Of a stretch of DNA of 64,000 bases, positions 2,959 to 34,570 are shown piece by piece. Made by a program: the position numbers and the translations under genes. Numbering within the stretch: the first letter of the stretch is position 1; each line of letters starts with the position of its first letter. Source of the DNA: Cryomorphaceae bacterium (lineage in GTDB: Bacteria; Bacteroidota; Bacteroidia; Flavobacteriales_D; SKUL01). The DNA is taken from NCBI GenBank assembly GCA_007695365.1, contig REDV01000092.1, positions 114,708 through 178,707 of the forward strand. The letters are read 5' to 3'. The notes beneath the pieces were generated by a model, which was not told where the DNA came from, did no database searches, and saw only the letters and a list, made by a program, of their open reading frames with translations.

Positions 2959-2961
2959 GCT

Positions 2962-4348: not shown

Positions 4349-4356
4349 AAATAGAG

Positions 4357-4379: not shown

Positions 4380-4383
4380 GCAT

Positions 4384-5793: not shown

Positions 5794-5804
5794 AACGAGA
5801 GATC

Positions 5805-6242
5805 ATGAATTGGGGATGGAAAATTGCCATTGGTTACACCGCTTTTGCACTGTTCATTTTGTATTTGGTGTACCGCACCACAGGAGTGGAGTTTGAGCTG
5901 GTTACTCCTGACTATTACGCTCAAGAACTCGCCTATCAGGGTGAAATTGACAAACGCAAAATGGCCCTTTCAAGTGGTTTGGATCTAGAGGTTCTGATTC
6001 AGGACGGGCAAGTTCTTGTGCAGTTCAACCAAACACCTGGCGAGAGCGAAGCAAGGGGTGATTTGATTTTTTTCCGACCTTCAGACTCAAGTCTCGACCG
6101 GAAATTTCAATGGGAAATGGACGAAAGCGGTGCCATGGTAATTGGCCATGATGCCTTTTCACGAGGGCAATACGTTTTCAAGGCAGATTGTGTTTTTGAG
6201 GGCAAATCATTCTTTATAGAGAAGCCAGTTTTTATTCCGTAA
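5805..6242 (+). CDS. fixH: FixH family protein
   Basis: 145-aa protein with one N-terminal TM helix (WKIAIGYTAFALFILYLVY), located directly after ccoG. Its stop overlaps the next ATG (TAATG). Confidence 0.7.
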   Translation: MNWGWKIAIGYTAFALFILYLVYRTTGVEFELVTPDYYAQELAYQGEIDKRKMALSSGLDLEVLIQDGQVLVQFNQTPGESEARGDLIFFRPSDSSLDRKFQWEMDESGAMVIGHDAFSRGQYVFKADCVFEGKSFFIEKPVFIP

Positions 6243-6943
6243 TGGAGCCTGCGGTACTCACCGGGGCTTTTCTGGTCGGACTGGCAGGCAGCCTTCATTG
6301 CGTGGGTATGTGTGGTCCGTTGGCCATGGCTGTTCCCACGCGGGGCAACAGATTTTTCTCTTTGTTGTCTTACAACTCAGGTCGCATTGCTATGTATGCA
6401 TTGCTGGGCGCCTTGTTTGGTGCTTTTGGAGCATCGGTGAATTTTCTTGAAAGCGGTCAGCGCGTATCATTGATGCTTGGTATCGCCATCATTGTATTGT
6501 TAGCTATTCCTTCGCTTATTCCCAACTGGCGCCTCACCAGCAGTTGGAACGCGGGCGCAGTGAAGCTTTACGGGCGTATGGCTCGTCCTGTTTTTGGTTA
6601 TCGCGGACCGGGGTCTTCCTTACTCCTTGGTGCTTTGAATGGTATGCTGCCTTGTGGGTTGATATACATCGCGCTGGCCGGTGCTATAGCGTCGGGCTCG
6701 GCATATATGGGTGCGCTTGTGATGGCTGCGGTCGGACTCGGCACGTGGCCTGCCATGTGGATGATGATGTCGTTGAGAAGTTATGTGGGTCCCTGGTTTC
6801 AAAGGCACAGCAAAAAAGTAGTTCCGCTGGTGGCCATCGCCCTGGGCGCGGTGCTGATTTTACGCGGAATGAACCTTGATATACCCTATCTGAGTCCGCG
6901 AATCGAAAAGGTTGGAACGGCAGGGCAGGAGGTGTGTGACTAA
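6242..6943 (+). CDS. TauE/SafE-like (DsbD_2-type) membrane protein associated with cbb3 assembly clusters
   Basis: Polytopic membrane protein with N-terminal GSLHCVGMCGP and a later NGMLPCG motif. It is translationally coupled to fixH. Confidence 0.65.
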   Translation: MEPAVLTGAFLVGLAGSLHCVGMCGPLAMAVPTRGNRFFSLLSYNSGRIAMYALLGALFGAFGASVNFLESGQRVSLMLGIAIIVLLAIPSLIPNWRLTSSWNAGAVKLYGRMARPVFGYRGPGSSLLLGALNGMLPCGLIYIALAGAIASGSAYMGALVMAAVGLGTWPAMWMMMSLRSYVGPWFQRHSKKVVPLVAIALGAVLILRGMNLDIPYLSPRIEKVGTAGQEVCD

Positions 6944-19914: not shown

Positions 19915-19971
19915 GATGAAAGATGTTTCAGGTTGGTATGGCGGCGATTTGGATATTAGACAATTTGCCCT

Positions 19972-19979
19972 CAAATATA
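19972..19979 (-). promoter_or_regulatory. Candidate -7 box (TATATTTG) for adhesin gene
   Basis: The minus strand matches TAnnTTTG, 58 nt upstream of the ATG at 19914. Confidence 0.35.
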
Positions 19980-20121
19980 AGGGTATTGGTACAAAATACA
20001 GTACAGCTTTCTTGGAGATTATAAACAAGACTTGTTTGCTCCTCAACAATCGTTTATACGGAGTTATTGCAGAAGTGTTGCACATTTCATGGATATGATG
20101 TGCCAATAACGGATGAAGGGT

Positions 20122-20655
20122 TTATTTCCTCTTGGGGACAGTGATTTGTTGCGTGTGCGTGGCAGTGTTGCCGCAAACATCAGAGGCTGTCCAGGTACGA
20201 GTGATGATTACATTATCCGGATCAGAGAAATTGTACTGTTCGTCAAAGCTGATATCTGCACCCTGGCCACCATCGTCAAAGGCTCCAACAAACAGTGCCC
20301 GCGGAATTTCTTCTCTGCTGGCAACAAGCGTATCAACGGGGGCATTTTGGAAAACAGGAGGGGTGTCGTCAACCAAAGTGATGTACTGGCTTTCGGTAAG
20401 TTTGTTACCACAGGCATCGCTGAATTCATATGTGCGCTCAATAGCACCAGCACATCCTCCGGAAAAGTGTTTGTCGGTGAAATCGACCTGCAACTTGCCG
20501 GGGCAATTGCTGTGTGCTTCATATAGCACAGCGTCTTCCAAATCGGCTACGTTTACACGAACCTGTTTTTCAAAATGAGAGAGGGTGATGCCATTGGTCT
20601 GAGCCTGAGCATAGAAGGTAAAAAGCGAACAAAAAGACAGAATAACGAACTTCAT
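20122..20655 (-). CDS. Secreted protein with two adhesin-type modules ending in xRTaxFSDACGN / RTWTASDVCGN
   Basis: Signal peptide MKFVILSFCSLFTFYAQAQT (ATG at 20655) and two repeats ending in ...CGN-x7-Q-x-IT. No T9SS CTD is visible. Confidence 0.6.
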   Translation of the reverse strand: MKFVILSFCSLFTFYAQAQTNGITLSHFEKQVRVNVADLEDAVLYEAHSNCPGKLQVDFTDKHFSGGCAGAIERTYEFSDACGNKLTESQYITLVDDTPPVFQNAPVDTLVASREEIPRALFVGAFDDGGQGADISFDEQYNFSDPDNVIITRTWTASDVCGNTATHTQQITVPKRK

Positions 20656-20751
20656 AGGACACATGAATTGGATATCTAAAGGTAACACTTTTCTGACCAA
20701 TACAAGATGACCTATGCGCAAGCTTTTTCCACAGCGAGGTGCAACAATTGT

Positions 20752-21801
20752 TTATAGCACCATAATACGTTGAGAAAGGGTTTCTTTGTTGGTCTGAAAA
20801 TGAATGAGGTACAAACCTGCTCTCAGATTGCCCAGGTCCAGTTGCGTGGAGAAGTTAGAGTGAATGCTAAGGTTTTCCGGAAGCGCATAAATATGTTGAC
20901 CCAACATATCACTGATCCAAAGCTTGCCATTTGTTACTTCAGAGCTGCGGATATTGACAGAGACCAACTGCCTTGCCGGGTTGGGAAACACGCCAAGCGA
21001 GATGTTGCCGGTTTGTGTTTCTACATGCGTTACCTGCTGCGGAATGGTGTAGAACATCTCTGCGCCTTCGTTGCTTCCGGGGCATGCATCACTGCTCCAG
21101 GAGCGTTGGTAGAGGAGGGGGCCGCGCTGTTCGGGACTCATCCAGATGTGCTCCAATACGGTGTAGTGGCGCTCCATGTCCAGATTGGCGTTGTAGCGGG
21201 TAGTAAGCGTGGTTCTTCGAATTTTGAGAACGTTTTCATAGGTTCCATTAGGCAAAATCAGCGTGCCATAGCCTACGCCCTCGCATTCTACCAATTGGTC
21301 AAGAGCCCAGTCTCTACACATGCTGAAGAGTGTGCCTGAAGATTCGTCAGAAGAAATGCTTCCGAATTCAAAAGGGTACTCAAACCAGGTAGCACCGTTG
21401 TGCATTTGAATCACTTCATTGTCCCCTCCCTGACCGAGGGAAACTAAACCGGCCTCCTGATTGCTCCAGTAACGAACCGAGCCGTTTGGAAGCGCCATGG
21501 CTACATTGGCCATTCCGAAGAAGGGAAAATCACTGATGTCGCCTGGGTGAATGATGCTGCCGCCCCAAATTTCGGAGTTGCCCAGCGTATGCAGATCTGT
21601 AAAATCCCAGATTTGGTTGGCGCCATCCGGGCCGTCGTGCATATTTTCGGTAGCGACGTCGTATGCCAGAACCCAATCGCCTGGCTCGTAAAAGCAGTTG
21701 TGTTGAAGAATAGGTTGTGCGTTGACCGTCAGTGAGATGAATAGCACTTGTGATAGAAAGTAAAGTTGTTTCACGGGGTTGCGCTTAGAGTTGCAGCGCA
21801 A
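20752..21801 (-). CDS. T9SS type A sorting domain-containing secreted protein
   Basis: N-terminal signal (…FLSQVLFISLTVNAQP). The C-terminus (GVFPNPARQLVSVNI...AGLYLIHFQTNKETLSQRIMVL) is a typical Por/T9SS CTD. The start is uncertain: TTG at 21801 or GTG at 21771. Confidence 0.75.
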   Translation of the reverse strand: MRCNSKRNPVKQLYFLSQVLFISLTVNAQPILQHNCFYEPGDWVLAYDVATENMHDGPDGANQIWDFTDLHTLGNSEIWGGSIIHPGDISDFPFFGMANVAMALPNGSVRYWSNQEAGLVSLGQGGDNEVIQMHNGATWFEYPFEFGSISSDESSGTLFSMCRDWALDQLVECEGVGYGTLILPNGTYENVLKIRRTTLTTRYNANLDMERHYTVLEHIWMSPEQRGPLLYQRSWSSDACPGSNEGAEMFYTIPQQVTHVETQTGNISLGVFPNPARQLVSVNIRSSEVTNGKLWISDMLGQHIYALPENLSIHSNFSTQLDLGNLRAGLYLIHFQTNKETLSQRIMVL

Positions 21802-21851
21802 AGGTAAGCCCGATTGAGTGCAATGTCAAGATTGTCGGTGTGAAATAGTTG

Positions 21852-22127
21852 TTAGTCGCTGTTTATTTCTGTTTCGTCGGGTTTCTCGTTAAAGTCCTTA
21901 AAGTTGCCGAGAAAGTGAGCGATCTGCGCTTTGTAATTCTCGAACTTGATCAGGTAGGAGCTTTCGGCTGTTTCATGGCGTAGCACGTGAATGGTGTTGT
22001 TGCGATGATCGGTCATACAAACCAAATGTTCCTGAAAACCATCAGGATACTTTTTCTTAAGTTCGTTGCGCACTGTTTCAGGCAAGCGTTCGAAGCTCAC
22101 CATAACTCTTCGTTTTCCCGTTTTCAT
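21852..22127 (-). CDS. Hypothetical protein (91 aa)
   Basis: I chose the ATG at 22127 (MKTGKRRVMVSFERLPETV...). I recognise no motif. Confidence 0.4.
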   Translation of the reverse strand: MKTGKRRVMVSFERLPETVRNELKKKYPDGFQEHLVCMTDHRNNTIHVLRHETAESSYLIKFENYKAQIAHFLGNFKDFNEKPDETEINSD

Positions 22128-22495
22128 AGCTTTCCATTGCTTTGGTTGTGCAAAAGGCTTAAATACGTTTTTGAGATGCGATGGGTTGCAATTACACCAG
22201 CACAACTCGCTGCGTTTTGGATGGTCGCGGGATGGGTTGAGTGTTGAATAGGTCAGGTAGGCAGTATGTTGCGCTAATTTTCGTAGTGCTTGCGCTGCAT
22301 ACAGCAAAGAGCTTAAATTTGCCGTGAGAGTGGTTGTTCACGAATAGCCTATGAACCAAACATTAAAGTGAATTCACTGCACAAAAATTTTAGCGGTATC
22401 TCCGAATTCCGTAAATTGGCCACTTTGAAAATTGTTGAAAAAACGTTAATAAACCTTCTACTGCCTGAATGGCAGTGTTTTGTAAGCCTGCAATA

Positions 22496-25400
22496 ATGTT
22501 GAGAACTTCGGTATTTCTGATGTGTGTGTTTTGTGCTTTGAGCTCGAATGCCCAGGTGTTTTGGTCGGAAGATTTTGGCAATATACCCGGGTGTAACAGC
22601 CAAACAGCAGACGGTTTTAATTCTGGCCTTGGACAATGGACAGTTGTTCAGGTGGACCCCGGTGCAAACTCTGTTCAACCAAACGTATGGTATGTGAGTG
22701 CGACAGAGGCTGGGATGGGGGAAGGGAATTGTGGCGAGGGCTGTCTTGACACGCCGGGCCTGAGCAATGCATCATTGCATGTAAGCACCGACCTGCTCGG
22801 AGATTTAGGGGCAGCCTATTTCGAGACGGGGTTTGGCTTTACGGATACTGACATCCGGGCTCAATCACCCATTATTGACTGCTCCGGTCAGGCAGAGATT
22901 ACCATGAGTTTTTTGTACATGGCAGGTGGTAACAATGATGACTTTTGTTCGATTCAATATTTCGATGGTATGACATGGAGCGATTTGGGGACATTGCCTC
23001 AAACTGCTCTTACTTGTGCTCCTCAGGGAATCTGGACTGCTTTTTCTGTGGCTTTACCGGCCAGTGCCGATAACAACCCCAATGTGCGCATCGGTTTCAG
23101 GTGGATTAACGTGGACGACGGCATTGCCACAGACCCAAGTGTAGCCATAGACGACATTGAACTCTTTACCGGTGCGCCTCCACCACCGCCTGACATTTTC
23201 GCTGATTTCACGTCAAGTGAAACTATTGTATGTGCCGGTGATTGTGTTGAGTTCACCGATTTGAGCGATGGGCCCGTAACAGGTTGGACATGGACCTTTG
23301 AAGGAGGAACGCCGGGGTCATCAAATCAGCAGAGTCCAGCCGATGTTTGCTACGATAACCCCGGAACCTATGCCGTTACGCTCGAAGTGACCGGACCTGG
23401 TGGTGCTAACGATGTTCTTACCATACCGGGTTTTATAGAGGTAGAGGCATGCGGTTTGCCTCCACAGGCATCATTTACAGCTAGCTCTACCGATATTTGT
23501 GCCGGAGAATGTGTTGATTTTACTGACACCAGTCTTGGCGATGATATAACATCTTGGACGTGGGGGTTTACCGGAGCCAATCCGAATAACTCCAATCAAC
23601 AAAACCCCACTAACGTATGTTACGACACGCCAGGAACCTACGCGGTAAGCTTGAGCGTTTCAAGTGCTTTTGGAGATGATTCAACCACTGAGAACGCCTT
23701 TATTACGGTAAGCGATTGCTCAGATCCACCGGAAGCTGCCTTTTCCTCCAATGTCCAGAATATTTGTGCAGGAGATTGTGTGAACTTCACAGATCAGAGT
23801 ACGGGTAACATTACGGATTGGCAGTGGACTTTTACCGGCGCGGAAACCGCAAATTCCACCAACCAGAACCCCAACAACATCTGCTACAATACCCCCGGCT
23901 CATACAGCGTGACTCTGGTGGTAACCGGCCCTGATGGAAATGATCAGACAACGGTGAACAATTTTATAGTGGTTGATGACTGCTCAGCCCCCCCTACAGC
24001 TGCTTTTTCCTCCAATGTGCAGAATATCTGCATTGGTGATTGCGTAAACTTCAATGACCAAAGCACCGGATCGGTGAACACATGGCAGTGGACATTCGAC
24101 GGTGCTGATACCCAAAACTCAAACAATCAAAATCCCGGAAATATCTGCTACAGCAATGAGGGTACATTTGCGGTAACCCTGCTGGTTACTGGTGATGATG
24201 GCGACGATGAAGTGACGGTGAACGGATACATCACCGTAGCAGACTGCGCTGGTCCGCAAGCTGGTTTTACTGCATCTGAGCTGGTGATCTGTGAAGGCGA
24301 CTGTATTGATTTCATCAACCAAAGTATTGGTGGTGCCACAGATTTTGAGTGGTCTTTTCCGGGGGCTGATACGCCTTCGTCAACCGATGCCAATCCAACG
24401 GAAATATGCTACCAAAGTGCAGGTCAGTATGAGGTTACCCTCGAAGCCTCTGACGGAGTTGAAACAGACATTTTGACCCAACCTGCGTTCATTACTGTAG
24501 AAGAATGCCTTCCTGAACCTGCACCTCCAGTGCAGATTGGCTCGTCAACTACGCTTATTTGTTTGGGTGACTGTGTTTCTTTTACCGACCTGACAGAAGG
24601 AAACACCAGCAATTGGTCGTGGAGTTTTCCGGGTGCAGTTCCCTCTTTCTCAACGGTACAAAATCCACCACAGGTATGCTATCTGAACGAAGGCAGTTTT
24701 GATGTAACCCTTGAACTCACCGTTGACGGAGAGATCACGGATTCAACCTTCAGCAATTTTATCACGGTGGTTGATACCTGCGGCCCTATTGCCAATTTCA
24801 ACTACACGCCTATTGTGTGTTTGGGGCAGTGTTATGATTTTGAAAACACCAGTACAGGTGGTACGAGCTATTTCTGGACCTTCGAGGGAGCAGCAACTCC
24901 CACATCGGAGATGGAAAACCCCACTGATATCTGTTACCTCGACCAAACAGGAATTTACAATGTAACCCTTACCGTAACCAATCAATTTGGGTCTTCTACA
25001 TCTATTACCCAGCAAATCACAGTGGTGAATCCGCCAAACGTGAATGCCGGACCCGATCAAACCATTGTTCAGGGCACCAGCACCACACTCACGGCCGTAG
25101 CCGGAAACGGAACCGGAAACTTTGTTTGGCAACCCTTTGAAGACGTGCTTTGCTTCTCTTGTCCAAGTACGGTTACCTATCCTTTAAATGAAACCACGAC
25201 ATTTATCGTGTTTTACGAGCAGTCTGGTGGGTGTCAAAGCTCCGATACCGTTACCGTGTTTGTAGAAGAGTCCTACGTAGTTGGCGTACCGAACTCTTTT
25301 TCGCCGAATGGCGATGGAGTGAACGACGTACTCTTCGTGAGAGGCAACAACATTACCCGTATGCGATTTGTGGTTTACAATCGCTATGGTCAAAAAGTAT

Positions 25401-25546
25401 TTGAAACCAACGACCAAAGTGTGGGTTGGGATGGTACCATGGGAGGCCGGGAATTGAATGCAGGTGTTTTTGGTTACTATTTAGAAGTGTTTCAGTTAGA
25501 TGGAAATCAACAAATCATAAAGGGAGATATTACCCTGGTAAGATAA
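22496..25546 (+). CDS. Multi-PKD cell-surface protein with T9SS type B (gliding-motility CHU_C-type) C-terminal domain
   Basis: Signal peptide MLRTSVFLMCVFCALSSNAQ, an N-terminal MAM/jelly-roll-like domain, a PPPPP linker and seven PKD units. The C-terminus is VPNSFSPNGDGVNDVLFVRG...GVFGYYLEV...KGDITLVR. Confidence 0.9.
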   Translation: MLRTSVFLMCVFCALSSNAQVFWSEDFGNIPGCNSQTADGFNSGLGQWTVVQVDPGANSVQPNVWYVSATEAGMGEGNCGEGCLDTPGLSNASLHVSTDLLGDLGAAYFETGFGFTDTDIRAQSPIIDCSGQAEITMSFLYMAGGNNDDFCSIQYFDGMTWSDLGTLPQTALTCAPQGIWTAFSVALPASADNNPNVRIGFRWINVDDGIATDPSVAIDDIELFTGAPPPPPDIFADFTSSETIVCAGDCVEFTDLSDGPVTGWTWTFEGGTPGSSNQQSPADVCYDNPGTYAVTLEVTGPGGANDVLTIPGFIEVEACGLPPQASFTASSTDICAGECVDFTDTSLGDDITSWTWGFTGANPNNSNQQNPTNVCYDTPGTYAVSLSVSSAFGDDSTTENAFITVSDCSDPPEAAFSSNVQNICAGDCVNFTDQSTGNITDWQWTFTGAETANSTNQNPNNICYNTPGSYSVTLVVTGPDGNDQTTVNNFIVVDDCSAPPTAAFSSNVQNICIGDCVNFNDQSTGSVNTWQWTFDGADTQNSNNQNPGNICYSNEGTFAVTLLVTGDDGDDEVTVNGYITVADCAGPQAGFTASELVICEGDCIDFINQSIGGATDFEWSFPGADTPSSTDANPTEICYQSAGQYEVTLEASDGVETDILTQPAFITVEECLPEPAPPVQIGSSTTLICLGDCVSFTDLTEGNTSNWSWSFPGAVPSFSTVQNPPQVCYLNEGSFDVTLELTVDGEITDSTFSNFITVVDTCGPIANFNYTPIVCLGQCYDFENTSTGGTSYFWTFEGAATPTSEMENPTDICYLDQTGIYNVTLTVTNQFGSSTSITQQITVVNPPNVNAGPDQTIVQGTSTTLTAVAGNGTGNFVWQPFEDVLCFSCPSTVTYPLNETTTFIVFYEQSGGCQSSDTVTVFVEESYVVGVPNSFSPNGDGVNDVLFVRGNNITRMRFVVYNRYGQKVFETNDQSVGWDGTMGGRELNAGVFGYYLEVFQLDGNQQIIKGDITLVR
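23198..25030 (+). repeat. Seven tandem in-frame PKD-coding repeats (about 250-260 bp each)
   Basis: Recurrent F-x-x-x-x-x-x-C-x-G-x-C-V-x-F-T-D-x-S...W-x-W-x-F-x-G...Q-N-P-x-x-x-C-Y...G-x-Y-x-V-x-L units. Units 3 and 4 share the identical peptide AAFSSNVQNIC and closely similar DNA. Confidence 0.85.
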
Positions 25547-25552
25547 CCGCGT

Positions 25553-26611
25553 ATGAAGAAAAAACTACTCTTCGCATGTACAGTAGCAGGAATGATGGGG
25601 TGGGCGGATGTAACTGCGCAGCAGGATGTCCATTTCTCTCAGTTCTATTATTCGCCTGTGCATTGGAATCCAGCTGCGGCCGGAGCAACCCGTGGCGACA
25701 TGCGCGCGGTGGCAACCTACCGTAATCAGTGGGCTTCGGTGTCCACCCCTTTTGTAACGTCGGCAGCTTCATTTGATGCCCCGATACAAACCCGTAACAT
25801 GGGAGACAATTTCCTGGGAATTGGTTTGAATTTTAATCATGATCAGGCCGGTACACAAGGAATGAGCAACCTAAACATCAATGGGGCTCTGAGCTACAGT
25901 CTCGATTTGGGTAGTCGTTACAAGAAGCCCCACTACATCTCTTTCGGATTGAATTTCGGATTTCTGCAGCGAAGCTTCAACACACCTGAGTCAACATGGG
26001 ATCGTCAGTGGGCAGGAAACGGTTTTGACCCCACCATTAACAATGGTGAGGGTATGCGGGGCGGAAAACTCGCTCGAGGTAATGTGACCGTAGGGGCAGG
26101 CGCACTGTGGAACTACACGTTTGATGATGACAAGCGGTTTTACCTGGGAGCAGCCATGTTTCATGTTAACCGACCCAACATGAGTTTGATTGAGGACTTT
26201 GACAACCTCTATCATAAGTTTACATACATGGCTGGTTTTGAGCTTGGGCACCCTGACAGGATGACCACCTTTCGCCCCAATATTATGGCGATGATGATGG
26301 GCCCTAACTTCTTTATGAACTTTGGGGGAGATGTGACCTTCGATTTGACAGATCGTACTGCCTACACGAACTACAAGAATCATCTTGCTGCGGGCTTTGG
26401 TATATACCACCGCCTTATGGACGCCATGATTTTTGCGATAAACATTGAGTACTCAAATTTTCGCATTGGCTTTGCATACGACCTGAACATATCGGGCTTT
26501 GATGTTGCAACCGGTGGAAACGGTGCTTTTGAAATTCTCCTTATGTACGAACCCCGATTTGGAGGCCCTGACACACAACGTCAGAAACTGCGCCGCAACA
26601 AGGGACTTTAA
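25553..26611 (+). CDS. PorP/SprF family type IX secretion system membrane protein
   Basis: QQDVHFSQFYYSPVHWNPAAAG...YRNQWASV is the family signature. It starts 6 nt downstream of the type B CTD cargo gene. Confidence 0.9.
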   Translation: MKKKLLFACTVAGMMGWADVTAQQDVHFSQFYYSPVHWNPAAAGATRGDMRAVATYRNQWASVSTPFVTSAASFDAPIQTRNMGDNFLGIGLNFNHDQAGTQGMSNLNINGALSYSLDLGSRYKKPHYISFGLNFGFLQRSFNTPESTWDRQWAGNGFDPTINNGEGMRGGKLARGNVTVGAGALWNYTFDDDKRFYLGAAMFHVNRPNMSLIEDFDNLYHKFTYMAGFELGHPDRMTTFRPNIMAMMMGPNFFMNFGGDVTFDLTDRTAYTNYKNHLAAGFGIYHRLMDAMIFAINIEYSNFRIGFAYDLNISGFDVATGGNGAFEILLMYEPRFGGPDTQRQKLRRNKGL

Positions 26612-26629
26612 TCCTAATCCTCAGCGAAA

Positions 26630-27145
26630 TCAGATTCGCTTCAATTGCTGTTGGAGCATTTTGATCTGATCAGCCAGAATTTTGTGCTTGTCGAGCTTTT
26701 TAGCTTCGGCTAAAAGCGTCGTAGCCTCTCGCTTCTTGCGTTTTGCCATACAAATACCGGCAAGGTTGAGTTTGGCCATTGCCTGATCGTGTTTCATGCG
26801 TAGCCCAAGATTGAGCGCCTTGCGGAAGTATTTCTCGGCCTGTGTTAAACTTTTCAACTGAGACTCTACCATGCCGAGCAGGTAGTAATAGTAGGCTTCC
26901 TGTGAGCGTACCAACAAATCAGGTCGTTTTATCCTCAAAAGAGCCGCATGCGCTTTATCGGGCTTTTGGCGACGCAACTGGAAAAATGCCCAGAGAATGC
27001 GCTCGTCCTTGAAAATACTCAAGACTATAAGCGCCAACACGAAAATAAGTGAGATGCCGTTTCCTATGTGTCCTGAACTGAATTGCCAGATTATCAATCC
27101 GAGAAGCGCTGCGATGAGCGTAAACTTCACTACGCGGTTTACCAT
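26630..27145 (-). CDS. Membrane-anchored TPR-like protein (hypothetical)
   Basis: Two N-terminal TM helices followed by TPR-like helices (AYYYYLLGMVESQLKSLTQAEKYFRKALNL). Confidence 0.5.
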   Translation of the reverse strand: MVNRVVKFTLIAALLGLIIWQFSSGHIGNGISLIFVLALIVLSIFKDERILWAFFQLRRQKPDKAHAALLRIKRPDLLVRSQEAYYYYLLGMVESQLKSLTQAEKYFRKALNLGLRMKHDQAMAKLNLAGICMAKRKKREATTLLAEAKKLDKHKILADQIKMLQQQLKRI

Positions 27146-27164
27146 GGTTTTCGGGAAATTTCGG

Positions 27165-27172
27165 CAAAGTTA
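27165..27172 (-). promoter_or_regulatory. Candidate -7 box (TAACTTTG)
   Basis: The minus strand matches TAnnTTTG, 20 nt upstream of the ATG at 27145. Confidence 0.35.
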
Positions 27173-27204
27173 AAAAAGCCGGCGGGATGGATGACCTGAC
27201 TGTT

Positions 27205-27438
27205 CTATGGAGTTCCTCCTCGTGCTTTTAAGGCTTGCACATTGAGCAAAAAAGCCCAGGTGATATCACCCACAGCACCGTCAACCGGAATACTTGTTAC
27301 TCGCTGAAAATCCAGAACTGCCTCTGTAGTGCGGGCACAATAACAACCACTGGGCTCAATGTTGTAGCCAATTTCCTTCAGGATTTCCTGAAGGGCGAGC
27401 ACTTCGTCCCCTTGCGATCCCTGAATAAGCAATTCCAT
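27205..27438 (-). CDS. Stand-alone peptidoglycan-binding (PG_binding_1-like) domain protein, no signal peptide
   Basis: GSQGDEVLALQEILKEIGYNI...TTEAVLDFQRVTSIPVDGAVGDITWAFL matches the PG_binding_1 pattern. The whole protein is 77 aa. Confidence 0.6.
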   Translation of the reverse strand: MELLIQGSQGDEVLALQEILKEIGYNIEPSGCYCARTTEAVLDFQRVTSIPVDGAVGDITWAFLLNVQALKARGGTP

Positions 27439-27482
27439 CGGAAAGGTTATTGGTTGGTACGCGTGAAGTTAATCAATTTTTG

Positions 27483-28241
27483 CTACGCTGCCTTCCCGAG
27501 GATGAATTGTTTGCTTTGAAGGCTTTTCAGGAAGTTCAGAACCTTCTGCTCATCAAACGAATCAGGCGATAGGCTTCCTGACTCGATGAGGGCATTCATC
27601 GCACCTAGTGCGTGGAGCCCTTCTGACTCTAAAAGGGTTTCGAGCAGCGCTGCGTATTGGAGACTAAGCGAAACAAATTGCACTTTACCAGACTCCTTCT
27701 CACGAAAAACGAGCAGAAAAAAGTTTCCGGGTTTGGATATAAAATCAGCACGATGAATACGGTGAACAGGGTAGGTGAGGTGCAAAAGTCTGTAGTGCGG
27801 GTTAAAAACCAGTGGAAGGCTCAATAACTGGTTATCGGCACAAAGAACGTGAGCGGGAACTTCCAGGTCGGGCGTGCTGTGTACCTCTATTTCTGTCCAT
27901 TCCATCATAAGCAGGTCGGGCAAAAAAGGCAGGTTGTTGGATTTGTGATATCCGGTCTCCTCGACAAATTCCAGTAATTCTCGGGCCATCCGCCAAACCC
28001 GGGGGTTGTGACATTTGTGTTCAGCGAAAAATCTTTCAACCAGTTCATTCCAATTGTCAGTTCCGAGGAACCTCACCGCAATAGGATAAGCCTCAGTCAA
28101 GATACTATGAACAACATTGAGCACCAACTTTCGATACTGTTTAAGTCTTTCAGGTGAAGTGCCCGGTATGCTGATGTCTATGCCGTCACGGCAATATTGT
28201 GCAAGCGCGCCCTGAATTGATGATGTATCCTTCTTCAACAT
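27483..28241 (-). CDS. DUF2063-type partner protein of the MNIO enzyme (HvfC/BufC-like)
   Basis: 252-aa protein whose N-terminal region (YRKLVLNVVHSILTEAYPIAVRFLG...FFAEH) resembles DUF2063. It overlaps the DUF692 gene by 7 nt. Confidence 0.7.
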   Translation of the reverse strand: MLKKDTSSIQGALAQYCRDGIDISIPGTSPERLKQYRKLVLNVVHSILTEAYPIAVRFLGTDNWNELVERFFAEHKCHNPRVWRMARELLEFVEETGYHKSNNLPFLPDLLMMEWTEIEVHSTPDLEVPAHVLCADNQLLSLPLVFNPHYRLLHLTYPVHRIHRADFISKPGNFFLLVFREKESGKVQFVSLSLQYAALLETLLESEGLHALGAMNALIESGSLSPDSFDEQKVLNFLKSLQSKQFILGKAA

Positions 28242-29077
28242 GTTTGTCGGCTCCAGGCTTGATGCGCCAAACCGCGCAGATTGTTCATTTCACCAACCAA
28301 AACCGATAAGTCCGGTATGTTGAAGTCGCGCTCAAGCAGCACGGGCACCGGGTTTAGTTTAGGGAGTGTCCAGGAAAACAGGTCATACACCGGTTCTATC
28401 ACATTTTGACCGTGTGTATCAATAATGAGGTCAGGCGCCACTTGTTCGTGCCCGGCCATATGGATATATGCCACAGACTCGAGCGGAAGCGATGACAGGA
28501 AAGTTTTCGGGTCGTATTGATGGTTGAAGGCATTTACGTACACATTGTTCACGTCGAGCAGAAGCTTACAACCAGATTCATTGACAATGCCGGAAATAAA
28601 AGTTGCCTCATCCATTTCAGCAGCCACAGGCGTGTAGTACGAAACATTCTCGAGTGCGAGCGGGCGTTCCAATACATCCTGCACCACCCTAATGCGCGCT
28701 GCGATGTGCCTGATGGCGTCTTCCCTGAAAGGAATAGGCAACAAATCGTACAAGTGGGCATTGTTGCACTTGCTGTAACTTAGGTGCTCACTGTATAACT
28801 GAACATTGTGTTCGTCCAGAAATCCCTTCAAGTCGCGGAGAAACTGCAAGTCCAGGGGGTCAGGGCTTCCTACAGACAATGAAAGGCCATGACATACCAC
28901 CGGGTAGGCTTCGGTAGCTCGTCGTAAAACTTTGCCCCAGTAGCCGCCCATGCCCATCCAATTTTCGGGGGCAAGCTCGATAAAGTCCGGTCGGTCGGAA
29001 ATGAGGGCAATCATGTCCTCAGCCATTTCCCGCCGGAAACCAAGACCAACACCCGGTATGTTAACTTCCTTATTCAT
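28235..29077 (-). CDS. DUF692 / multinuclear non-heme iron oxidase (MNIO; MbnB/HvfB/BufB-like)
   Basis: VGLGFRREM...FIELAPENWMG...CHGLSLSVGS...YSEHLSY...ALENVSYY...LLDVNNVYVNAFNH...HMAGH is the TIM-barrel DUF692 motif series. Confidence 0.85.
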   Translation of the reverse strand: MNKEVNIPGVGLGFRREMAEDMIALISDRPDFIELAPENWMGMGGYWGKVLRRATEAYPVVCHGLSLSVGSPDPLDLQFLRDLKGFLDEHNVQLYSEHLSYSKCNNAHLYDLLPIPFREDAIRHIAARIRVVQDVLERPLALENVSYYTPVAAEMDEATFISGIVNESGCKLLLDVNNVYVNAFNHQYDPKTFLSSLPLESVAYIHMAGHEQVAPDLIIDTHGQNVIEPVYDLFSWTLPKLNPVPVLLERDFNIPDLSVLVGEMNNLRGLAHQAWSRQTC

Positions 29078-29112
29078 CCCATCTTACGCCGTACTCAATT
29101 TCTGCCCAACAT

Positions 29113-29139
29113 AAAAAAAGGGAGCTCATGAAAGCTCCC
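29113..29139 (-). terminator. Intrinsic terminator/attenuator between precursor and MNIO genes
   Basis: The minus strand reads GGGAGCT-ttcatg-AGCTCCC followed by TTTTTTT. It lies between the precursor stop (29161) and the MNIO ATG (29077). Confidence 0.7.
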
Positions 29140-29160
29140 CCTTCAAGATTTAAGAGCATG

Positions 29161-29580
29161 CTAGTTTCCGCATTTGCCTTCTCCACATTTGTGTTCACCG
29201 GCTTTAGACTCCTTTTCTTTTTTTTCCTGTGCTTTTTTCTCTTCTCGCTCCAAAGCCTCTTTACGCGCGGCATCACGATCGGCCTGGCTGGCTTTTTTGC
29301 CACACATTTGCTCGCCGGCTTTGCTCTCATCGGCTTTGCTTTGGCCTTTTTCTTCAGCTTTGGATTTCTCTCCACACTTGCCCTCCCCGCATTTAAGCTC
29401 CATATTGCGGTTATCAACAAATGCGATGGGGTTTATGCTGCTGAGAATTTCGCTGCGCAATTCACCTCCTGAGCCAAGCATTTCAAAGCTCTCAGTTGCA
29501 TTTGCATTACTGCCCATTGCGCTTGCAAGTATAGCACCAGTAGCCAAAGCAGATATCCGAATGTTTTTTTTCTTTTCCAT
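29161..29580 (-). CDS. Secreted Cys-Gly repeat precursor, HvfA-like RiPP substrate candidate
   Basis: The ATG at 29580 gives MEKKKNIRISALATGAILASAMGSNANA (a Sec signal) followed by a K/E/A-rich body. The body carries ELKCGEGKCGEK, EQMCGKK and a C-terminal HKCGEGKCGN. Confidence 0.7.
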   Translation of the reverse strand: MEKKKNIRISALATGAILASAMGSNANATESFEMLGSGGELRSEILSSINPIAFVDNRNMELKCGEGKCGEKSKAEEKGQSKADESKAGEQMCGKKASQADRDAARKEALEREEKKAQEKKEKESKAGEHKCGEGKCGN

Positions 29581-29781
29581 GAGTGAAATGTTGAGGTTGA
29601 TGTTTAAGAAAGCCGAAGCTTTTCTTCGACCATATTGACGCAAGTTACAAAACATGAGTCAGTCCGCAGAGTTTTTTGGCATTTTTATCGGGAACTAAGC
29701 ACGGTGAATTTGTAAGGAATTCATTGTTTACAAGCTGTGAGCTCCCTTCAGGTATTTAACATTCAGGGTGCTACAGTTTGC

Positions 29782-29789
29782 TAACTTTG
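29782..29789 (+). promoter_or_regulatory. Candidate -7 box (TAACTTTG)
   Basis: Matches TAnnTTTG, 5 nt upstream of the GTG at 29794. Confidence 0.35.
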
Positions 29790-29793
29790 CGCT

Positions 29794-30342
29794 GTGCTGC
29801 ATTATCCCGGAATCATTTCTTTCCTCGTGTTTGTGGGCCTCCATTTTACGGCCCACAGCCAAAATTTGCGCATGCAGCATGAAATGCAAATGCGCGAAAA
29901 AGATATCGCACGCACTTCGGTTCACTTCGAAATTGGCGGCAATGCCCTGGGTTGGTCTATAAACGGTGATCGCATCCTCTTTCAGTCTGATTATTACAAG
30001 GGGTCGCTCAGGCTCGGGATTGGAATATTGCCCTACCCTTCATCTTTAAAAGACAATCGCACATTCCTTTTCTTTCCTGTAGAGTACAACAACCTCTTTG
30101 GGCCGAAGCAAAACTTTCTGGAAATTGGTTTGGGAACCACTTTTACGAACTCATTACAGGGCAGTGATATCTGGATTACCGGAAGGGTGGGGTATCGTTT
30201 GCAACCCATCGGCGGCGGTTTTTTTATGCGGGCAGGATTGGTATTGCTTTACATACCCTATACCAACCCGATTCTTTACGGCAACGAAACAATGGATATA
30301 GTTCTTCCACTTCCCAGCGTTTCCTGGGGTTTTAGCTTTTAG
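29794..30342 (+). CDS. Hypothetical small outer-membrane-like protein
   Basis: GTG start, signal-like N-terminus (…FLVFVGLHFTAHSQ), alternating hydrophobic beta-strand pattern and a C-terminal ...SWGFSF. Confidence 0.45.
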   Translation: MLHYPGIISFLVFVGLHFTAHSQNLRMQHEMQMREKDIARTSVHFEIGGNALGWSINGDRILFQSDYYKGSLRLGIGILPYPSSLKDNRTFLFFPVEYNNLFGPKQNFLEIGLGTTFTNSLQGSDIWITGRVGYRLQPIGGGFFMRAGLVLLYIPYTNPILYGNETMDIVLPLPSVSWGFSF

Positions 30343-30372
30343 AGCCGGTACCCCGCGGTTTTTGTGAAATGT

Positions 30373-30380
30373 TAATTTTG
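30373..30380 (+). promoter_or_regulatory. Candidate -7 box (TAATTTTG)
   Basis: Matches TAnnTTTG, 26 nt upstream of the ATG at 30406. The TAATTTTGCAG context is identical to the one upstream of dapF. Confidence 0.4.
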
Positions 30381-30405
30381 CAGGGCGACACAAAAACCAA
30401 CCCAT

Positions 30406-32487
30406 ATGTTTCAAAACACATTTTGGGCTGCCATATTGGTGGCTTTTCTTTTTACCTCGTGCGATTCGGAAGATACGCGCATTACCTCGGCCGCGCTGCC
30501 CGAAGACTGGCAACCCGACGATGCGGAGGTTTATATTCCACAACCAGATGAAGACGGGTTTGCATGGCAAACAGAACAGTTTGCGGATCTTAAAATCCTG
30601 CGATACCGAATTCCCGATTGGGAGAATCTAACGCTTCAGCAAAAAAAGTTGGTGTACTATCTTGTAGAGGCAGGATTGACTGGAAGAGAGATTATTCAGG
30701 ATCAGAATTACCGGCACAACCTCACTATTCGCAGGGCGCTTGAAAATATCTACGAGAATTATTCTGGCAACAGAAATACCAAGGGCTGGAAACGCTTTGA
30801 GACATACCTGAAGCGGGTTTGGTTCTCTAACGGTATTCATCACCATTACAGCAATGCCAAGTTTCTACCAACATTTAGCAGAGATTATTTTGATGAGTTG
30901 TGTGTTGACACAGGTATTGAGTTGAGCGATGAGGTTCTCGCAGCTATCTTCGACCCGGCTATTGATGCCAAAAAAGTAGAGCAAGACCCGGATAAAGGAC
31001 TCGTTGAAGGTTCGGCTGTTAATTTCTACGATCCGGATATAACCACCCGGGAAGCTGAGGAATACCTCGCTTCCATTGCACCGAAAAATAAGCGAACCCC
31101 CGTTTCAACAAGTTTGAATTCCAAACTGGTGAGAGGTGATGACGGGAAGGTTGGAGAGCGCAGATATCGCGTGGGAGAGATGTACTCTGATGCCCTTAAA
31201 GAGGTAGTGCGCTGGCTGAAACTGGCTGAAAGCGTAGCGGAGAATGATAAACAGGCTTCTGCATTGCGCAAGCTTATTGATTATTACCAAACCGGAGACC
31301 TTGAGATATGGGACTTGTATAACATTGCCTGGGTGAGAGCTATTGAAGGCGACATTGATTACATCCAGGGCTTTGTTGAAGTGTACAATGACCCTCTGGG
31401 TTATACTGGCTCTTTTGAGAATATTGTGCAGATCAAGGATTTTGACGCATCTGAACGCATGCAGGTGATGATGGAGAATGCGCAGTGGTTTGAAGACCAC
31501 ATGCCATTTATGGATCAGCACAAAAAAGAGAATGTAGTTGGTATTACGTACAATGTGGTCAATGTTGCGGGAGAGGCCGGAGATGCTTCGCCGTCAACTC
31601 CAATCGGAGTGAACCTCCCCAACGCCAACTGGATCCGCAGTATGTATGGCTCCAAATCTGTGAGTTTGGGAAATATTCTGGAAGCTTATGATAAAGCCTC
31701 CGGACCAGGCATGATCGATGAGTTTGCGTATAATGAAGAGGAGGCCGAGCGGGCAAAAATGTATGGAAGCCTGGCAGGTAAGCTACACACGGCTCTTCAT
31801 GAAGTCATTGGTCATGCATCAGGAGCACTCGAGGAAGGAGTGGGCACCCCAAAGGAAACCATCAAGAGCTATGCTTCAACCATCGAGGAGGGCAGGGCCG
31901 ATCTGATTGCACTGTATTTCATTATGGATTCGATGATGGTGAAATTAGGACTGGTGGAAAGCATGGATGTTGGAAAAGCAGAGTACGATAGCTACATACG
32001 AAACGGATTGCTCACACAATTGCGCAGACTTGAACTGGGCGATGATATCGAGGAAGCTCATATGAGAAACCGTGCATGGGTATCCCGTTGGGTATTGGAG
32101 GCCGGAGCCGCGGATACTGTTATTGCCGAAGTGAAGCGCGAAGGAAAAACGTTCTACCACATTCGCGACTATGATCGGTTGCGCGAACTGTTTGGAGAAC
32201 TTCTTCGCGAAGTTCAACGCATTAAGTCGCAAGGCGATTACAACGCTGCCCGCAACCTTGTAGAAAATTACGGTGTGAAGGTAGATCAGGACCTTCACAA
32301 AGAGGTGCTCGAGAGAACTGCTAAACTCGGTATAGCACCTTATGGCGGGTTTATCAACCCGAGATTGGTAGCGGAGATGGGAGAAGACGGTGAAATTACC
32401 GATGTGCGGGTAGAGTATCCGGATGATTTTGCCCGCCAGATGATGGAATACAGGGAGAAGTATTCTTTTCTGCCTGATTACAACTGA
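30406..32487 (+). CDS. Dipeptidyl-peptidase III-like zinc metallopeptidase (M49 family)
   Basis: HEVIGH plus EEGRAD (the HExxGH / EExRAE(D) M49 signature). The N-terminus (FLFTSCDS) resembles a lipoprotein signal. Confidence 0.85.
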   Translation: MFQNTFWAAILVAFLFTSCDSEDTRITSAALPEDWQPDDAEVYIPQPDEDGFAWQTEQFADLKILRYRIPDWENLTLQQKKLVYYLVEAGLTGREIIQDQNYRHNLTIRRALENIYENYSGNRNTKGWKRFETYLKRVWFSNGIHHHYSNAKFLPTFSRDYFDELCVDTGIELSDEVLAAIFDPAIDAKKVEQDPDKGLVEGSAVNFYDPDITTREAEEYLASIAPKNKRTPVSTSLNSKLVRGDDGKVGERRYRVGEMYSDALKEVVRWLKLAESVAENDKQASALRKLIDYYQTGDLEIWDLYNIAWVRAIEGDIDYIQGFVEVYNDPLGYTGSFENIVQIKDFDASERMQVMMENAQWFEDHMPFMDQHKKENVVGITYNVVNVAGEAGDASPSTPIGVNLPNANWIRSMYGSKSVSLGNILEAYDKASGPGMIDEFAYNEEEAERAKMYGSLAGKLHTALHEVIGHASGALEEGVGTPKETIKSYASTIEEGRADLIALYFIMDSMMVKLGLVESMDVGKAEYDSYIRNGLLTQLRRLELGDDIEEAHMRNRAWVSRWVLEAGAADTVIAEVKREGKTFYHIRDYDRLRELFGELLREVQRIKSQGDYNAARNLVENYGVKVDQDLHKEVLERTAKLGIAPYGGFINPRLVAEMGEDGEITDVRVEYPDDFARQMMEYREKYSFLPDYN

Positions 32488-32558: not shown

Positions 32559-33008
32559 TTACACTGCTTTGTAATGATAACCAAAACCTCTCTGAATGAG
32601 TTGTTGCCAACGGTCGGAGAGTATCTTTACAGCCCTGCTCAGCTGAATTTTTTCGGTGGGTTTCAAAAAGTAGCCGTTCGCACCCCTGACATAACACGCA
32701 GCAATCACATCCTTGTCGCTGTTGTCGCTTAAAACAAAAACCGGTATTTGCTTCAGTTTGTCGCTTCGTTGAATTTGTTCAAGAATTTTCAGTCCTTCCT
32801 TCGCATCCGGTAAGTTGATATCCAGTAAAATGAGGGAGGGCAGGTCAAGATGTCTTACCCTTGTGCTCAGGCACTGCGAAATGAAGTCATGCACGGCACT
32901 CATGGTTGAGAGGTGTTGAATTTCTACTGTATCGTTGTTTTCAGCAAACATTCGTTCAATCAATGCACAATCGGCTTCGGTTCGGTCAATCAGTAAAATC
33001 CTTTTCAT
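32559..33008 (-). CDS. Stand-alone response regulator receiver protein
   Basis: KRILLIDRTEAD, LILLDINLP (phospho-acceptor Asp), VFVLSDNS and YFLKP. No output domain is present. Confidence 0.85.
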   Translation of the reverse strand: MKRILLIDRTEADCALIERMFAENNDTVEIQHLSTMSAVHDFISQCLSTRVRHLDLPSLILLDINLPDAKEGLKILEQIQRSDKLKQIPVFVLSDNSDKDVIAACYVRGANGYFLKPTEKIQLSRAVKILSDRWQQLIQRGFGYHYKAV

Positions 33009-34570
33009 AGCTCGTGCTTTTCATTAATTTGAACAGGTTCGGGTTGGGTGTATTGTGGCAGTTTAAATTGGTAAGGCAGTTTCGCGATTTTATCGAGAAA
33101 CCAGTGGTGAAAAACCACGTACTCATGACTTCTGATTTTCCATGCGTAGTCAGAGTGATCGCTTTCCAGTTCGTAGAACAGATCTTGATTGTTGAAGTAG
33201 GTTTTGGCAAAGTCGAAGCTGGTGCGCTCCAGGTTCCTGAGAATTTTGAGAATAGCCTTGTCGCGAGAGGCAAATTCGAGTTCTTCGGGATTTTTAGACA
33301 GGTGTTTGCGCAAGGAGTCAATTGAAAGGTCTGCGAGATCCAAAAGTTGCATCTCCATCAAACACATGATGCTTAAAATGCGAACCCCCACATTCCAGCC
33401 TTCAGGGTCAGTATCCATGAGGGCATATTCACTGTTGCACCGCTCGTAAGCTTTAGAAAACTGACCTCTGTTAAACAGAATACAGGCCTGCAGGTAAACC
33501 ATTTTACTGCGTTCAAAGGGGGCAACGCGTATTAAATCACTTTGCAACAATGTGTCAGCTACTTCCCACGCCATATTCAGGTTACCCTGAAAATAGTAGG
33601 TCTGGGCCTGCAGCGATTTAATTGCAACAAAATTGTAGCTACCCACCCCTGCTCCCCGCAAACTGAGTTCGATATTTTTCTGACAGTGGTCAAACTCATG
33701 CATCAGCATGTGGTTGTAGGCCAGGTTGACGTATGCACTACTTAATTTAATATCAGACCGTAGAGCAGGACTAGCGTTGATCACATGAACCATTTTCTCC
33801 GCCGATTTACCCGCTGAATTATAATCCCCGAGTGCCTGGAAGTATTCCATTTCAAAGAGATAAACGTATTGTCCAACGGTTGCAGATTTCGTGGAGTTGT
33901 AAAGACGCTGGAGTTCTGATAAGGCCTCGGTCAATAGACCTACTTGCTCGTTTTGGCTGGCCTTTCGATCAGCAGCCATATAAAAACGGGTATTCCATTC
34001 CAAGGCGAGATATACAGCGTCTCTCTTTTTTTCTGCCTCTGTAATTTTACTCCGTAAAATCGAAAAAGCCTTTTCTCCTTGTGAAAGCCCATCCCATTCA
34101 AGTTTAATTCGTAGAATGCTCACGAGGAGATCGTAGAGTTCGTAGGTTTCACAGGTTTGAATTTCGTTACTCATTAATAAATTCGCAGACCGTTGGTTTC
34201 CTCGGCCTAAAAGATTGGTAATGAGAATCCAATTCTTGGTGACAAGTTGGCGCGCCTTGTACCACTCACTGTAGTTGCCTCTGCGAAGAATGTTTTGCCG
34301 AAGGGTAAGAGAATCGAATATTTTATCGCGTAGCCGGGTCAGAAATTTATTGAAGTCGTATTTGTCCATGCCCGGGCTGATGGCGTTTAGCAATTCGTCG
34401 TAATCAGCGTTTGGATGATCGAGCATGTATTGCAGGGCTTCGTGCGATTTAAGGTGCTGGGCGCCTTTTCTGCTGAATGACACAAGGTATTGCAGGGCTA
34501 ATTCGCCCTCAAAGGGCTTGAGCCTCTGCGTAATCTCGCGCAACTCGTCAAATATGTTCAGCCTTTTCAT
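33005..34570 (-). CDS. All-helical TPR-like protein (hypothetical, 521 aa)
   Basis: Repeated helix-pair patterns with Y/F/A/L periodicity (EMEYFQALGDYNSAGKSAEK, AQTYYFQGNLNMAWEVAD, QACILFNRGQFSKAYERC). Its stop overlaps the receiver ATG (ATGA). Confidence 0.6.
   Translation of the reverse strand: MKRLNIFDELREITQRLKPFEGELALQYLVSFSRKGAQHLKSHEALQYMLDHPNADYDELLNAISPGMDKYDFNKFLTRLRDKIFDSLTLRQNILRRGNYSEWYKARQLVTKNWILITNLLGRGNQRSANLLMSNEIQTCETYELYDLLVSILRIKLEWDGLSQGEKAFSILRSKITEAEKKRDAVYLALEWNTRFYMAADRKASQNEQVGLLTEALSELQRLYNSTKSATVGQYVYLFEMEYFQALGDYNSAGKSAEKMVHVINASPALRSDIKLSSAYVNLAYNHMLMHEFDHCQKNIELSLRGAGVGSYNFVAIKSLQAQTYYFQGNLNMAWEVADTLLQSDLIRVAPFERSKMVYLQACILFNRGQFSKAYERCNSEYALMDTDPEGWNVGVRILSIMCLMEMQLLDLADLSIDSLRKHLSKNPEELEFASRDKAILKILRNLERTSFDFAKTYFNNQDLFYELESDHSDYAWKIRSHEYVVFHHWFLDKIAKLPYQFKLPQYTQPEPVQINEKHEL

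Follow-up and report, generated by a model that had tools for sequence, protein, structure and literature searches.

Captophorins comprise oxazolin, fontiphorin, gonophorin, the bufferins and bulbicupramide, and the characterised members are all from Pseudomonadota (Gadgil et al., PMC13097082). Copper-binding products with 5-thiooxazoles are made from EGKCG repeats by the enzyme pairs HvfBC, FonBC and NgoBC (PMC13097082; bioRxiv 10.64898/2026.07.17.739211). Bufferins are exported by Sec and protect against copper (PMC11626156). The locus compared with these systems here lies in a 64 kb stretch of DNA (the window) from a Cryomorphaceae bacterium (assembly GCA_007695365.1, contig REDV01000092.1, positions 114,708 to 178,707), where a preliminary description had placed an HvfABC/bufferin-type cluster for a peptide made on ribosomes and altered after translation (RiPP), with an enzyme of the MNIO family. 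The locus is a genuine three-gene HvfABC-type MNIO RiPP cluster. We put at roughly 80% the probability that it is a captophorin cluster of the HvfABC (oxazolin) type, the peptide of which is made into an exported Cu(I) binder, most likely sequestering excess copper.

The precursor, MNIO and partner genes all lie on the minus strand as three co-directional open reading frames (ORFs) at 29161..29580, 28235..29077 and 27483..28241. The MNIO and partner genes share exactly 7 nt (ATGTTGA) and the gap between the precursor and MNIO genes is 83 nt; the coordinates and the overlap given in the preliminary description were all reproduced. The features of the cluster were as follows, with the basis of each in brackets.

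29161..29580, minus strand: HvfA-like precursor gene of the Lys-Cys captophorin type, 139 aa (ORF, homologues, synteny and ratio of non-synonymous to synonymous substitution rates, dN/dS)
29497..29580, minus strand: predicted Sec signal peptide, aa 1-28, MEKKKNIRISALATGAILASAMGSNANA (read by rule from the sequence)
29455..29478, minus strand: conserved box LGSGGELR, aa 35-42, candidate HvfC docking site (alignment conservation)
29371..29394, minus strand: first KCGEGKCG, aa 63-70, with C64 and C69, predicted modification site (sequence and alignment)
29302..29304, minus strand: lone Cys93 in EQMCG, modification uncertain (sequence)
29167..29190, minus strand: second KCGEGKCG, aa 131-138, with C132 and C137 (sequence and alignment)
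29115..29144, minus strand: terminator-like hairpin with a 13-bp stem and a T run (fold energy and recurrence in relatives)
28235..29077, minus strand: HvfB-family MNIO, 280 aa (PF05114, NCBIfam HvfB and ligand alignment)
27483..28241, minus strand: HvfC-like partner, DUF2063/HvfC_N and NGO1945_C/HvfC_C, 252 aa (Pfam and NCBIfam)
27205..27438, minus strand: small PG_binding_1 protein, 77 aa, membership tentative (PF01471 and clade synteny)

The MNIO matched PF05114 with E = 2e-100 over profile positions 1-261 of 263 and passed the NCBIfam HvfB equivalog NF003818 at 384.6 bits (cutoff 360), which bears out the earlier DUF692/MNIO assignment. Scores against the other MNIO models were below cutoff: BufB 276.2 bits (310), MbnB 42.4 (325) and ChrH 54.6 (600), with ApyH likewise far below. 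The best solved relative was PDB 3BWW from Histophilus somni (E = 2e-70), a protein 72% identical to HvfB. Iron ligands were placed by alignment to 3BWW and to MbnB 7TCR, H63 being aligned with 3BWW only and lying outside the MbnB local alignment. The MbnB ligand positions of sites 1-3 are 54, 90, 133, 163, 166, 192, 208, 210 and 239. All nine positions, the loss of which the preliminary description would have taken as fatal, were kept (in the same order H63, H98, E143, D175, N178, H206, D220, H222 and E250). N178, D220 and H222 correspond to the HvfB site-3 ligands N175, D242 and H244, and mutation of the HvfB site-3 residues abolishes activity. The selectivity motifs GFRR and ERDF give R15 R16 and D252 F253; among 120 close homologues, 116 carry the first motif and 117 the second. 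The matching residues of FonB, Arg15/Arg16, the catalytic Asp249 and Phe250, are reported to select Glu-x-Lys-Cys-Gly substrates and to act as catalytic base (PMC13097082).

Both HvfC Pfam domains were present in the partner, as the earlier assignment to a DUF2063-like family had proposed: PF09836 (DUF2063/HvfC_N) at 64.7 bits (cutoff 27.2, E = 9e-18) and PF22106 (NGO1945_C/HvfC_C) at 35.3 bits (cutoff 27, E = 1.5e-8). The match to the NCBIfam HvfC model was full-length, partner aa 9-249 being aligned with profile positions 1-236 of 237, and PDB 3DEE gave a weak match (E = 2.5e-4). The partner is translationally coupled to the MNIO gene.

Relatives were collected by a genome scan with one genome per species, which gave 488 related stretches, and the best 80 were used. 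These loci came from Flavobacteriales, Cryomorphaceae, Vicingaceae, Salibacter, Chitinophaga, Bacteroidales, Prolixibacter, Sphingobacteriaceae, Ignavibacteriota/Chlorobiota and Calditrichaceae. The order precursor-MNIO-partner was found in about 75 of the 80 loci, across Bacteroidota, Ignavibacteriota/Chlorobiota and Calditrichaceae. In nearly all 80 the MNIO gene was directly followed by the partner gene, and in 75 a conserved precursor gene directly preceded it; the Cys-Gly ORF next to the DUF692 gene, the absence of which from relatives had been named as a refutation, is therefore kept. The closest locus was in a Flavobacteriales metagenome-assembled genome (MAG), with an MNIO of 88% identity, and the three ORFs were intact and syntenic in several genomes of the clade. 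At least 8,000 MNIO candidates were scored, the top matches being 64-76% identical and including Chitinophaga and Flavobacteriales proteins named "HvfB family"; the best Pseudomonadota MNIOs in the plasmid collection were at most 48% identical. The rarity in Bacteroidota implied by the preliminary description was wrong: the cluster is widespread, and relatives are already named HvfB or HvfA family by NCBI/UniRef. Its HvfABC-type identification stands on the HvfB cutoff passed, the ligand and selectivity residues, the HvfC domains and the precursor synteny.

The precursor frame is open upstream as far as 29655, and the gene caller chose a 164-aa version. The start at 29580 was favoured because the MEKKK start is common to the homologues, Met1 is nearly invariant among 27 aligned homologues and the precursor ORF of the closest relative begins at the same Met. 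The mature part as predicted has 111 aa, among them 20 Glu, 18 Lys, 13 Gly, 11 Ala and 10 Ser. Relative to the closest relative, dN/dS was 0.059 at dS 0.89 for the precursor and 0.060 for the MNIO gene, and the two KCGEGKCG copies differ in 5 of 8 codons, every change being synonymous. By these measures the low-complexity ORF is a real gene under purifying selection. Homologues numbered 307 at E ≤ 1e-3, with Salibacteraceae, Flavobacteriales, Bacteroidales and Bacteroidetes MAGs as named sources, and one Salibacter homologue carries the UniRef name "HvfA family". A Pfam search of the precursor gave no match, including none to DUF2282. The predicted signal peptide has a basic n-region, a 15-residue hydrophobic core and Ala at -3/-1, with cleavage after ANA. 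The same n/h/c layout was seen in the aligned homologues, the AlphaFold 2 (AF2) model has a helix at aa 4-24, and the signal peptide has no lipobox Cys.

All five Cys residues of the precursor (C64, C69, C93, C132 and C137) are in Cys-Gly, four of them in the Lys-Cys-Gly repeats ELKCGEGKCG and EHKCGEGKCG and the fifth in EQMCG, in agreement with the preliminary description. That account had also put one KCGEGKCG copy at the extreme C-terminus; the C-terminal copy is present, but is followed by Asn139 before the stop. In the precursor alignment E61, C64, G65 and E66 are invariant, and K131, C132, G133, E134, C137 and G138 are each at least 90% conserved. Across 120 homologues Cys is followed by Gly in 98% of cases, and beyond residue 30 nearly all are preceded by Lys. 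The Cys93 site reads EQKCG in the closest relative and is variable in the others. The minimal substrate of FonBC is a double EGKCG-type repeat, a single repeat being left unmodified (PMC13097082), so modification of Cys93 is uncertain.

The signal peptide is followed by a box with the consensus LGSGxE[LV]R, and the 28 aligned sequences show no variation at L35, G36, E40 or R42. When loci were chosen solely by the similarity of their MNIO, the box was found in all 75 upstream Cys-rich ORFs in its loose form and in 53 of the 75 in its strict form. It lies 25-33 residues ahead of the first Cys-Gly. It was absent from the precursors of Neisseria gonorrhoeae, Acinetobacter ursingii and Pseudomonas aeruginosa, the three Pseudomonadota comparators, taken from plasmid-collection records. 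Its conservation, read against this outgroup of three sequences, suggests that the box may be a docking site for the HvfC-type partner.

The AF2 model of the precursor was weak (mean predicted local distance difference test score 55.7); in it the Cys motifs are disordered, and a single K/E-rich helix, aa 99-127, is modelled with confidence. The type 1 beta-helix of tandem 17-residue repeats modelled in PMC12452194 was not matched, the motif pairs here being 60 aa apart. A divergent precursor in a Chitinophaga MAG (L034, 3537-3929) carries KCS, KCT and KCA replacing KCG, and the MNIO next door (3998-4834) has ERDL in place of ERDF. Precursor and enzyme may thus have co-varied naturally, the enzyme change being at the site to which choice of the residue following Cys has been ascribed.

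The best terminator-like site in the region was a hairpin at 29144-29115 (-18.2 kcal/mol), which lies in the gap separating the precursor gene from the MNIO gene. Of 65 related loci, 53 have a T-tailed hairpin in this gap, where shuffled sequences would give 1.2; lineages differ in the sequence of the stem, so that position is kept and sequence is not. A terminator-like hairpin also lies 3' of the Neisseria gonorrhoeae precursor gene. The hairpin is unmentioned in the two main bioinformatic papers on these clusters. It is probably a leaky terminator, which in this place, behind the structural gene, would shift the ratio of precursor to enzyme upwards. No TAnnTTTG box was found on the minus strand upstream of the precursor, and the window total (44 against 42 expected) showed no enrichment. 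An Rfam search of 26000-31000 gave no RNA family match.

Sequence and homology show that the locus encodes an MNIO of HvfB type in which the ligands are intact, together with a coupled partner and a substrate with conserved Lys-Cys-Gly; modification, export and copper binding probably follow the characterised relatives. In the proposed pathway the 139-aa precursor is translated, with the leaky terminator probably keeping precursor transcripts in excess over those of the enzyme genes. In the cytoplasm the MNIO would pair with the DUF2063-type partner, which may dock on the LGSGGELR box. With a mixed-valent di-iron centre and O2, the enzyme would then turn all four Cys residues in the KCGEGKCG pair, and possibly Cys93 as well, into 5-thiooxazoles, with a predicted mass loss of 4 Da per Cys converted. 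Sec would export the modified peptide and signal peptidase I would cut after Ala28. The 111-aa product would stay in the periplasm, disordered near the modified motifs and with a K/E-rich helical spacer between them. Cu(I) would be bound through thiooxazole pairs, most likely at two sites, and excess copper most likely sequestered in this way.

Accessory genes were compared across the related loci. DoxX was found in 45 of 81 loci with a custom DoxX hidden Markov model (HMM), directly after the partner gene and confirmed by Pfam, and about 36 of the 81 were without a nearby DoxX. Loci with an extracytoplasmic function (ECF) sigma gene numbered 42, and those encoding a putative anti-sigma protein of 91 aa numbered 40. 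The layout without DoxX and sigma genes is a trait of the window's clade and not of Bacteroidota versions in general. In L022, L046 and 38 other loci, a protein of 91-105 aa with an HxxxCxxC-like motif and no Pfam match is encoded directly upstream of the precursor; it is usually near the ECF sigma gene and is therefore probably an undescribed small anti-sigma factor.

The fourth position, where DoxX sits elsewhere, is occupied in this clade only by a PG_binding_1 gene. In the window this gene starts 44 nt after hvfC and encodes a 77-aa protein with a PF01471 match (E = 5e-13) and no evident signal peptide. A gene for 77-81 aa, 40-odd nt after the partner gene, was found in every close relative with enough flank (L004, L082, L083, L084 and L086), and its dN/dS was 0.24. 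The PG_binding_1 gene still adjoins hvfC in L084 and L086 despite an inserted gene that the window is without. Synteny in the clade extends to the wider neighbourhood, so this linkage alone is no proof of shared function, and membership of the cluster is suggested tentatively. The inserted gene (L084 7190-9061, L086 7075-8997) encodes 623-640 aa with faint multihaem cytochrome matches and stands between the PG_binding_1 and TPR genes.

Several points weigh against the assignment as an exported copper binder of the HvfABC type. The window contained no DoxX by the same custom HMM and no ECF sigma/anti-sigma ORF, as the preliminary description had said of the immediate neighbours and as now holds for all 64 kb, so the window offers no regulatory link to copper. 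A sigma-70 scan upstream of the precursor found no promoter. The precursor scored below the NCBIfam HvfA equivalog NF050188 (26.1 bits, cutoff 95) and KCGExKCG_twice NF050137 (18.6 bits, cutoff 19.5), and automated annotation would therefore probably leave it hypothetical; the partner missed the HvfC equivalog (130.4 bits, cutoff 142). The signal peptide is a prediction read by rule, and the correspondence of the selectivity residues with those of FonB was set by motif position, not by sequence alignment. Experimental work on such clusters is confined to Pseudomonadota members, and the preliminary description was correct that the characterised examples are proteobacterial. Whether copper is sequestered or supplied is not settled even in the characterised members (PMC13097082).

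The same biosynthesis could serve a peptide that supplies or chaperones copper to periplasmic or membrane cuproenzymes, such as cbb3 oxidase. Copper acquisition is listed as one possibility in the oxazolin paper (PMC11252979), the window also contains a cbb3 oxidase island that includes a CcoI-like copper ATPase, and the cluster is without the stress-type ECF sigma/anti-sigma genes of its relatives. However, at a separation of 20.5 kb nothing speaks for co-regulation, the characterised thiooxazole pathways differ from methanobactin in responding to copper excess, to gold or to oxidative stress (PMC13097082), and bufferins protect against copper (PMC11626156); a supply role is considered unlikely. 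Service to another metal, or redox protection, would fit the unsettled metal specificity of thiooxazole peptides (PMC13097082), the ties of some related clusters to mercury or gold (PMC11626156, PMC12452194) and the lack of a copper gene adjoining the cluster. Against this, the characterised members all bind copper (PMC11252979, PMC11626156, PMC13097082), and this possibility is rated as quite improbable.

The preliminary description had expected methanobactin-like oxazolone/thioamide pairs, following the 2024 assignment for HvfA (PMC11252979). That product has been superseded by the reassignment to 5-thiooxazole by two groups, Gadgil et al. (PMC13097082) and the original authors (bioRxiv 10.64898/2026.07.17.739211); the MNIO is also far from MbnB (42.4 bits, cutoff 325) and the partner is of PME-type 1 and not MbnC, which makes such pairs very improbable here. 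A bufferin (BufABC) cluster is less probable still. BufB was the second-best NCBIfam match at 276.2 bits, and HvfB- and BufB-type enzymes fall in one similarity-network cluster in PMC12452194, but the BufB cutoff of 310 was missed where that of HvfB was passed, the precursor carries Lys-Cys-Gly without a DUF2282 match and in the enzyme the catalytic Asp is followed by Phe, the arrangement of the Lys-Cys group. The K/E/A-rich composition, the lack of a Pfam match and the missing accessory genes could point to a spurious low-complexity ORF or to a decaying remnant that has lost DoxX and the regulators. The purifying selection on the precursor (dN/dS 0.059 at dS 0.89), the repeats that differ only synonymously, the three ORFs intact and syntenic in the clade, the roughly 36 of 81 loci without a nearby DoxX and the published clusters with core genes in 'various combinations' (PMC12452194) render this negligible. 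An HvfABC-type captophorin cluster that most likely sequesters copper is preferred.

In the wider neighbourhood, a divergent 182-aa ORF lies upstream of the precursor at 29794-30342 (plus strand), conserved in L002-L004 and L082-L086. Neither Pfam nor NCBIfam gave a match for the ORF, which may encode a small outer-membrane protein, to judge by a hydrophobic N-terminus and a Phe at the C-terminus. In Salibacteraceae loci hvfC is followed by genes for outer-membrane beta-barrels; kinship of the ORF with these was considered and rejected, no similarity being found. A TAACTTTG box lies just upstream of this ORF at 29782-29789.

The cbb3 oxidase island occupies positions 1-6943 on the plus strand, about 20.5 kb from the cluster, and contains the following features.

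Island at 1-6943, plus strand: CcoI-like P-type ATPase, 3' end only, truncated by the window start
Near 620, plus strand: CcoS-like short ORF
685-2958, plus strand: fused CcoNO
3119-4348, plus strand: CcoP
4378-5793, plus strand: CcoG
5805-6242, plus strand: FixH
6242-6943, plus strand: DsbD_2 protein

The island noted at about 20 kb in the preliminary description is therefore real, at 20.5 kb, and evidence for a functional link was nil. Such a link was rejected, its sole basis being the common 64 kb window. Genes related to the type IX secretion system (T9SS) lie at 15733-26611. Two of their products carry Por_Secre_tail, an SprB/Calx-beta protein of 1457 aa and another protein of 349 aa; next come a PKD/CHU_C protein of 1025 aa and PorP/SprF; the genome had been called T9SS-bearing, and both components and cargo are indeed nearby. 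Two large minus-strand ORFs, at 33005-34570 (521 aa) and 36909-38993 (694 aa), had no Pfam match at E ≤ 1e-4. The 521-aa ORF is directly upstream of a response-regulator gene (32559-33008) and syntenic in the clade, and may therefore be an atypical sensor kinase.

In PMC12452194, about 2,000 Buf_EGKCG/oxazolin precursors are reported as 'mostly' Pseudomonadota, with core genes in various combinations. The Cytophaga hutchinsonii row of its Table S2 has MNIO, DUF2063 and DoxX with zero Buf_EGKCG precursors, and the Chitinophaga pinensis row has MNIO only. Judged from these two rows, precursors of the Bacteroidota subfamily seem to escape the signature in use there. The box, the inter-gene hairpin and the DoxX-less layout seem to be undescribed. 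We tentatively suggest, at less than even odds, that the Bacteroidota, Ignavibacteriota and Calditrichaceae clusters form a distinct undescribed captophorin subfamily, with the LGSGxE[LV]R box read by a diverged HvfC, the leaky terminator setting the precursor-to-enzyme ratio and a Flavobacteriales clade that has PG_binding_1 as fourth component and neither DoxX nor ECF sigma.

The characterised thiooxazole peptides are all from Pseudomonadota. This locus and its relatives show that Bacteroidota and neighbouring phyla, Flavobacteriales of the sea and of sediments among them, commonly carry the same system. The precursor falls just under current thresholds, so many such genes are labelled hypothetical. 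The conserved box is a candidate sequence for recognition by the partner, a step that has proved elusive in proteobacterial members of the class, and the DoxX-less layout provides a natural test of whether DoxX is needed. The understanding of the captophorin class is unchanged by this locus, which is an uncharacterised member of a known, widespread type.

The oxazolin cluster hvfABC(X) of nontypeable Haemophilus influenzae has the same gene order of precursor, MNIO and DUF2063-type partner. HvfA combines a Sec signal peptide with paired (A)EGKCGEGKCG-type motifs, such as the precursor here has after its predicted signal peptide, and the predicted product here is a Cu(I)-binding 5-thiooxazole peptide. 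HvfA has three AEGKCGEGKCG repeats, whereas the precursor here has two motif pairs 60 aa apart and a lone Cys; it carries the LGSGxE[LV]R box instead of an N-terminal disulfide Cys pair, and there is no DoxX (HvfX). Fontiphorin (fonABC, Fontimonas thermophila) and gonophorin (ngoABC, Neisseria gonorrhoeae) are also built on EGKCG repeats by an MNIO and a PME-type 1 partner, and share the Arg-Arg and Asp-Phe positions with the MNIO described here. Fontiphorin has seven modified sites, NgoA is without the conserved box and both systems are from Pseudomonadota with DoxX neighbours.

Bufferins (BufABC of Caulobacter vibrioides; Buf1/DUF2282 and Buf2) are Sec-exported, MNIO-modified periplasmic copper binders with 5-thiooxazole, like the product predicted here, and have a partner of the same family. 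They differ in that the precursors are of DUF2282 or Cys-Lys type, folded and with a disulfide, and the clusters usually include DoxX and sigma/anti-sigma genes. The methanobactin system (MbnABC) differs: the MbnB model was not reached, and the partner here is DUF2063-type (PME-type 1), not MbnC. Chryseobasin (ChrH, Chryseobacterium) is a characterised Bacteroidota MNIO system of the same phylum and superfamily, with a signal peptide on its precursor as predicted here, but belongs to another MNIO subfamily with macrocycle and hydantoin chemistry and a CPACGMG-type motif. Public genomes of Chitinophaga, Salibacter, Bacteroidales, Ignavibacteriota and Calditrichaceae contain hvf-like clusters that agree with this one in the precursor subfamily and its box, the gene order and the hairpin, with MNIOs 63-88% identical. 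About half of them carry an ECF sigma gene, a small putative anti-sigma gene and DoxX, whereas the window's clade carries PG_binding_1 instead.

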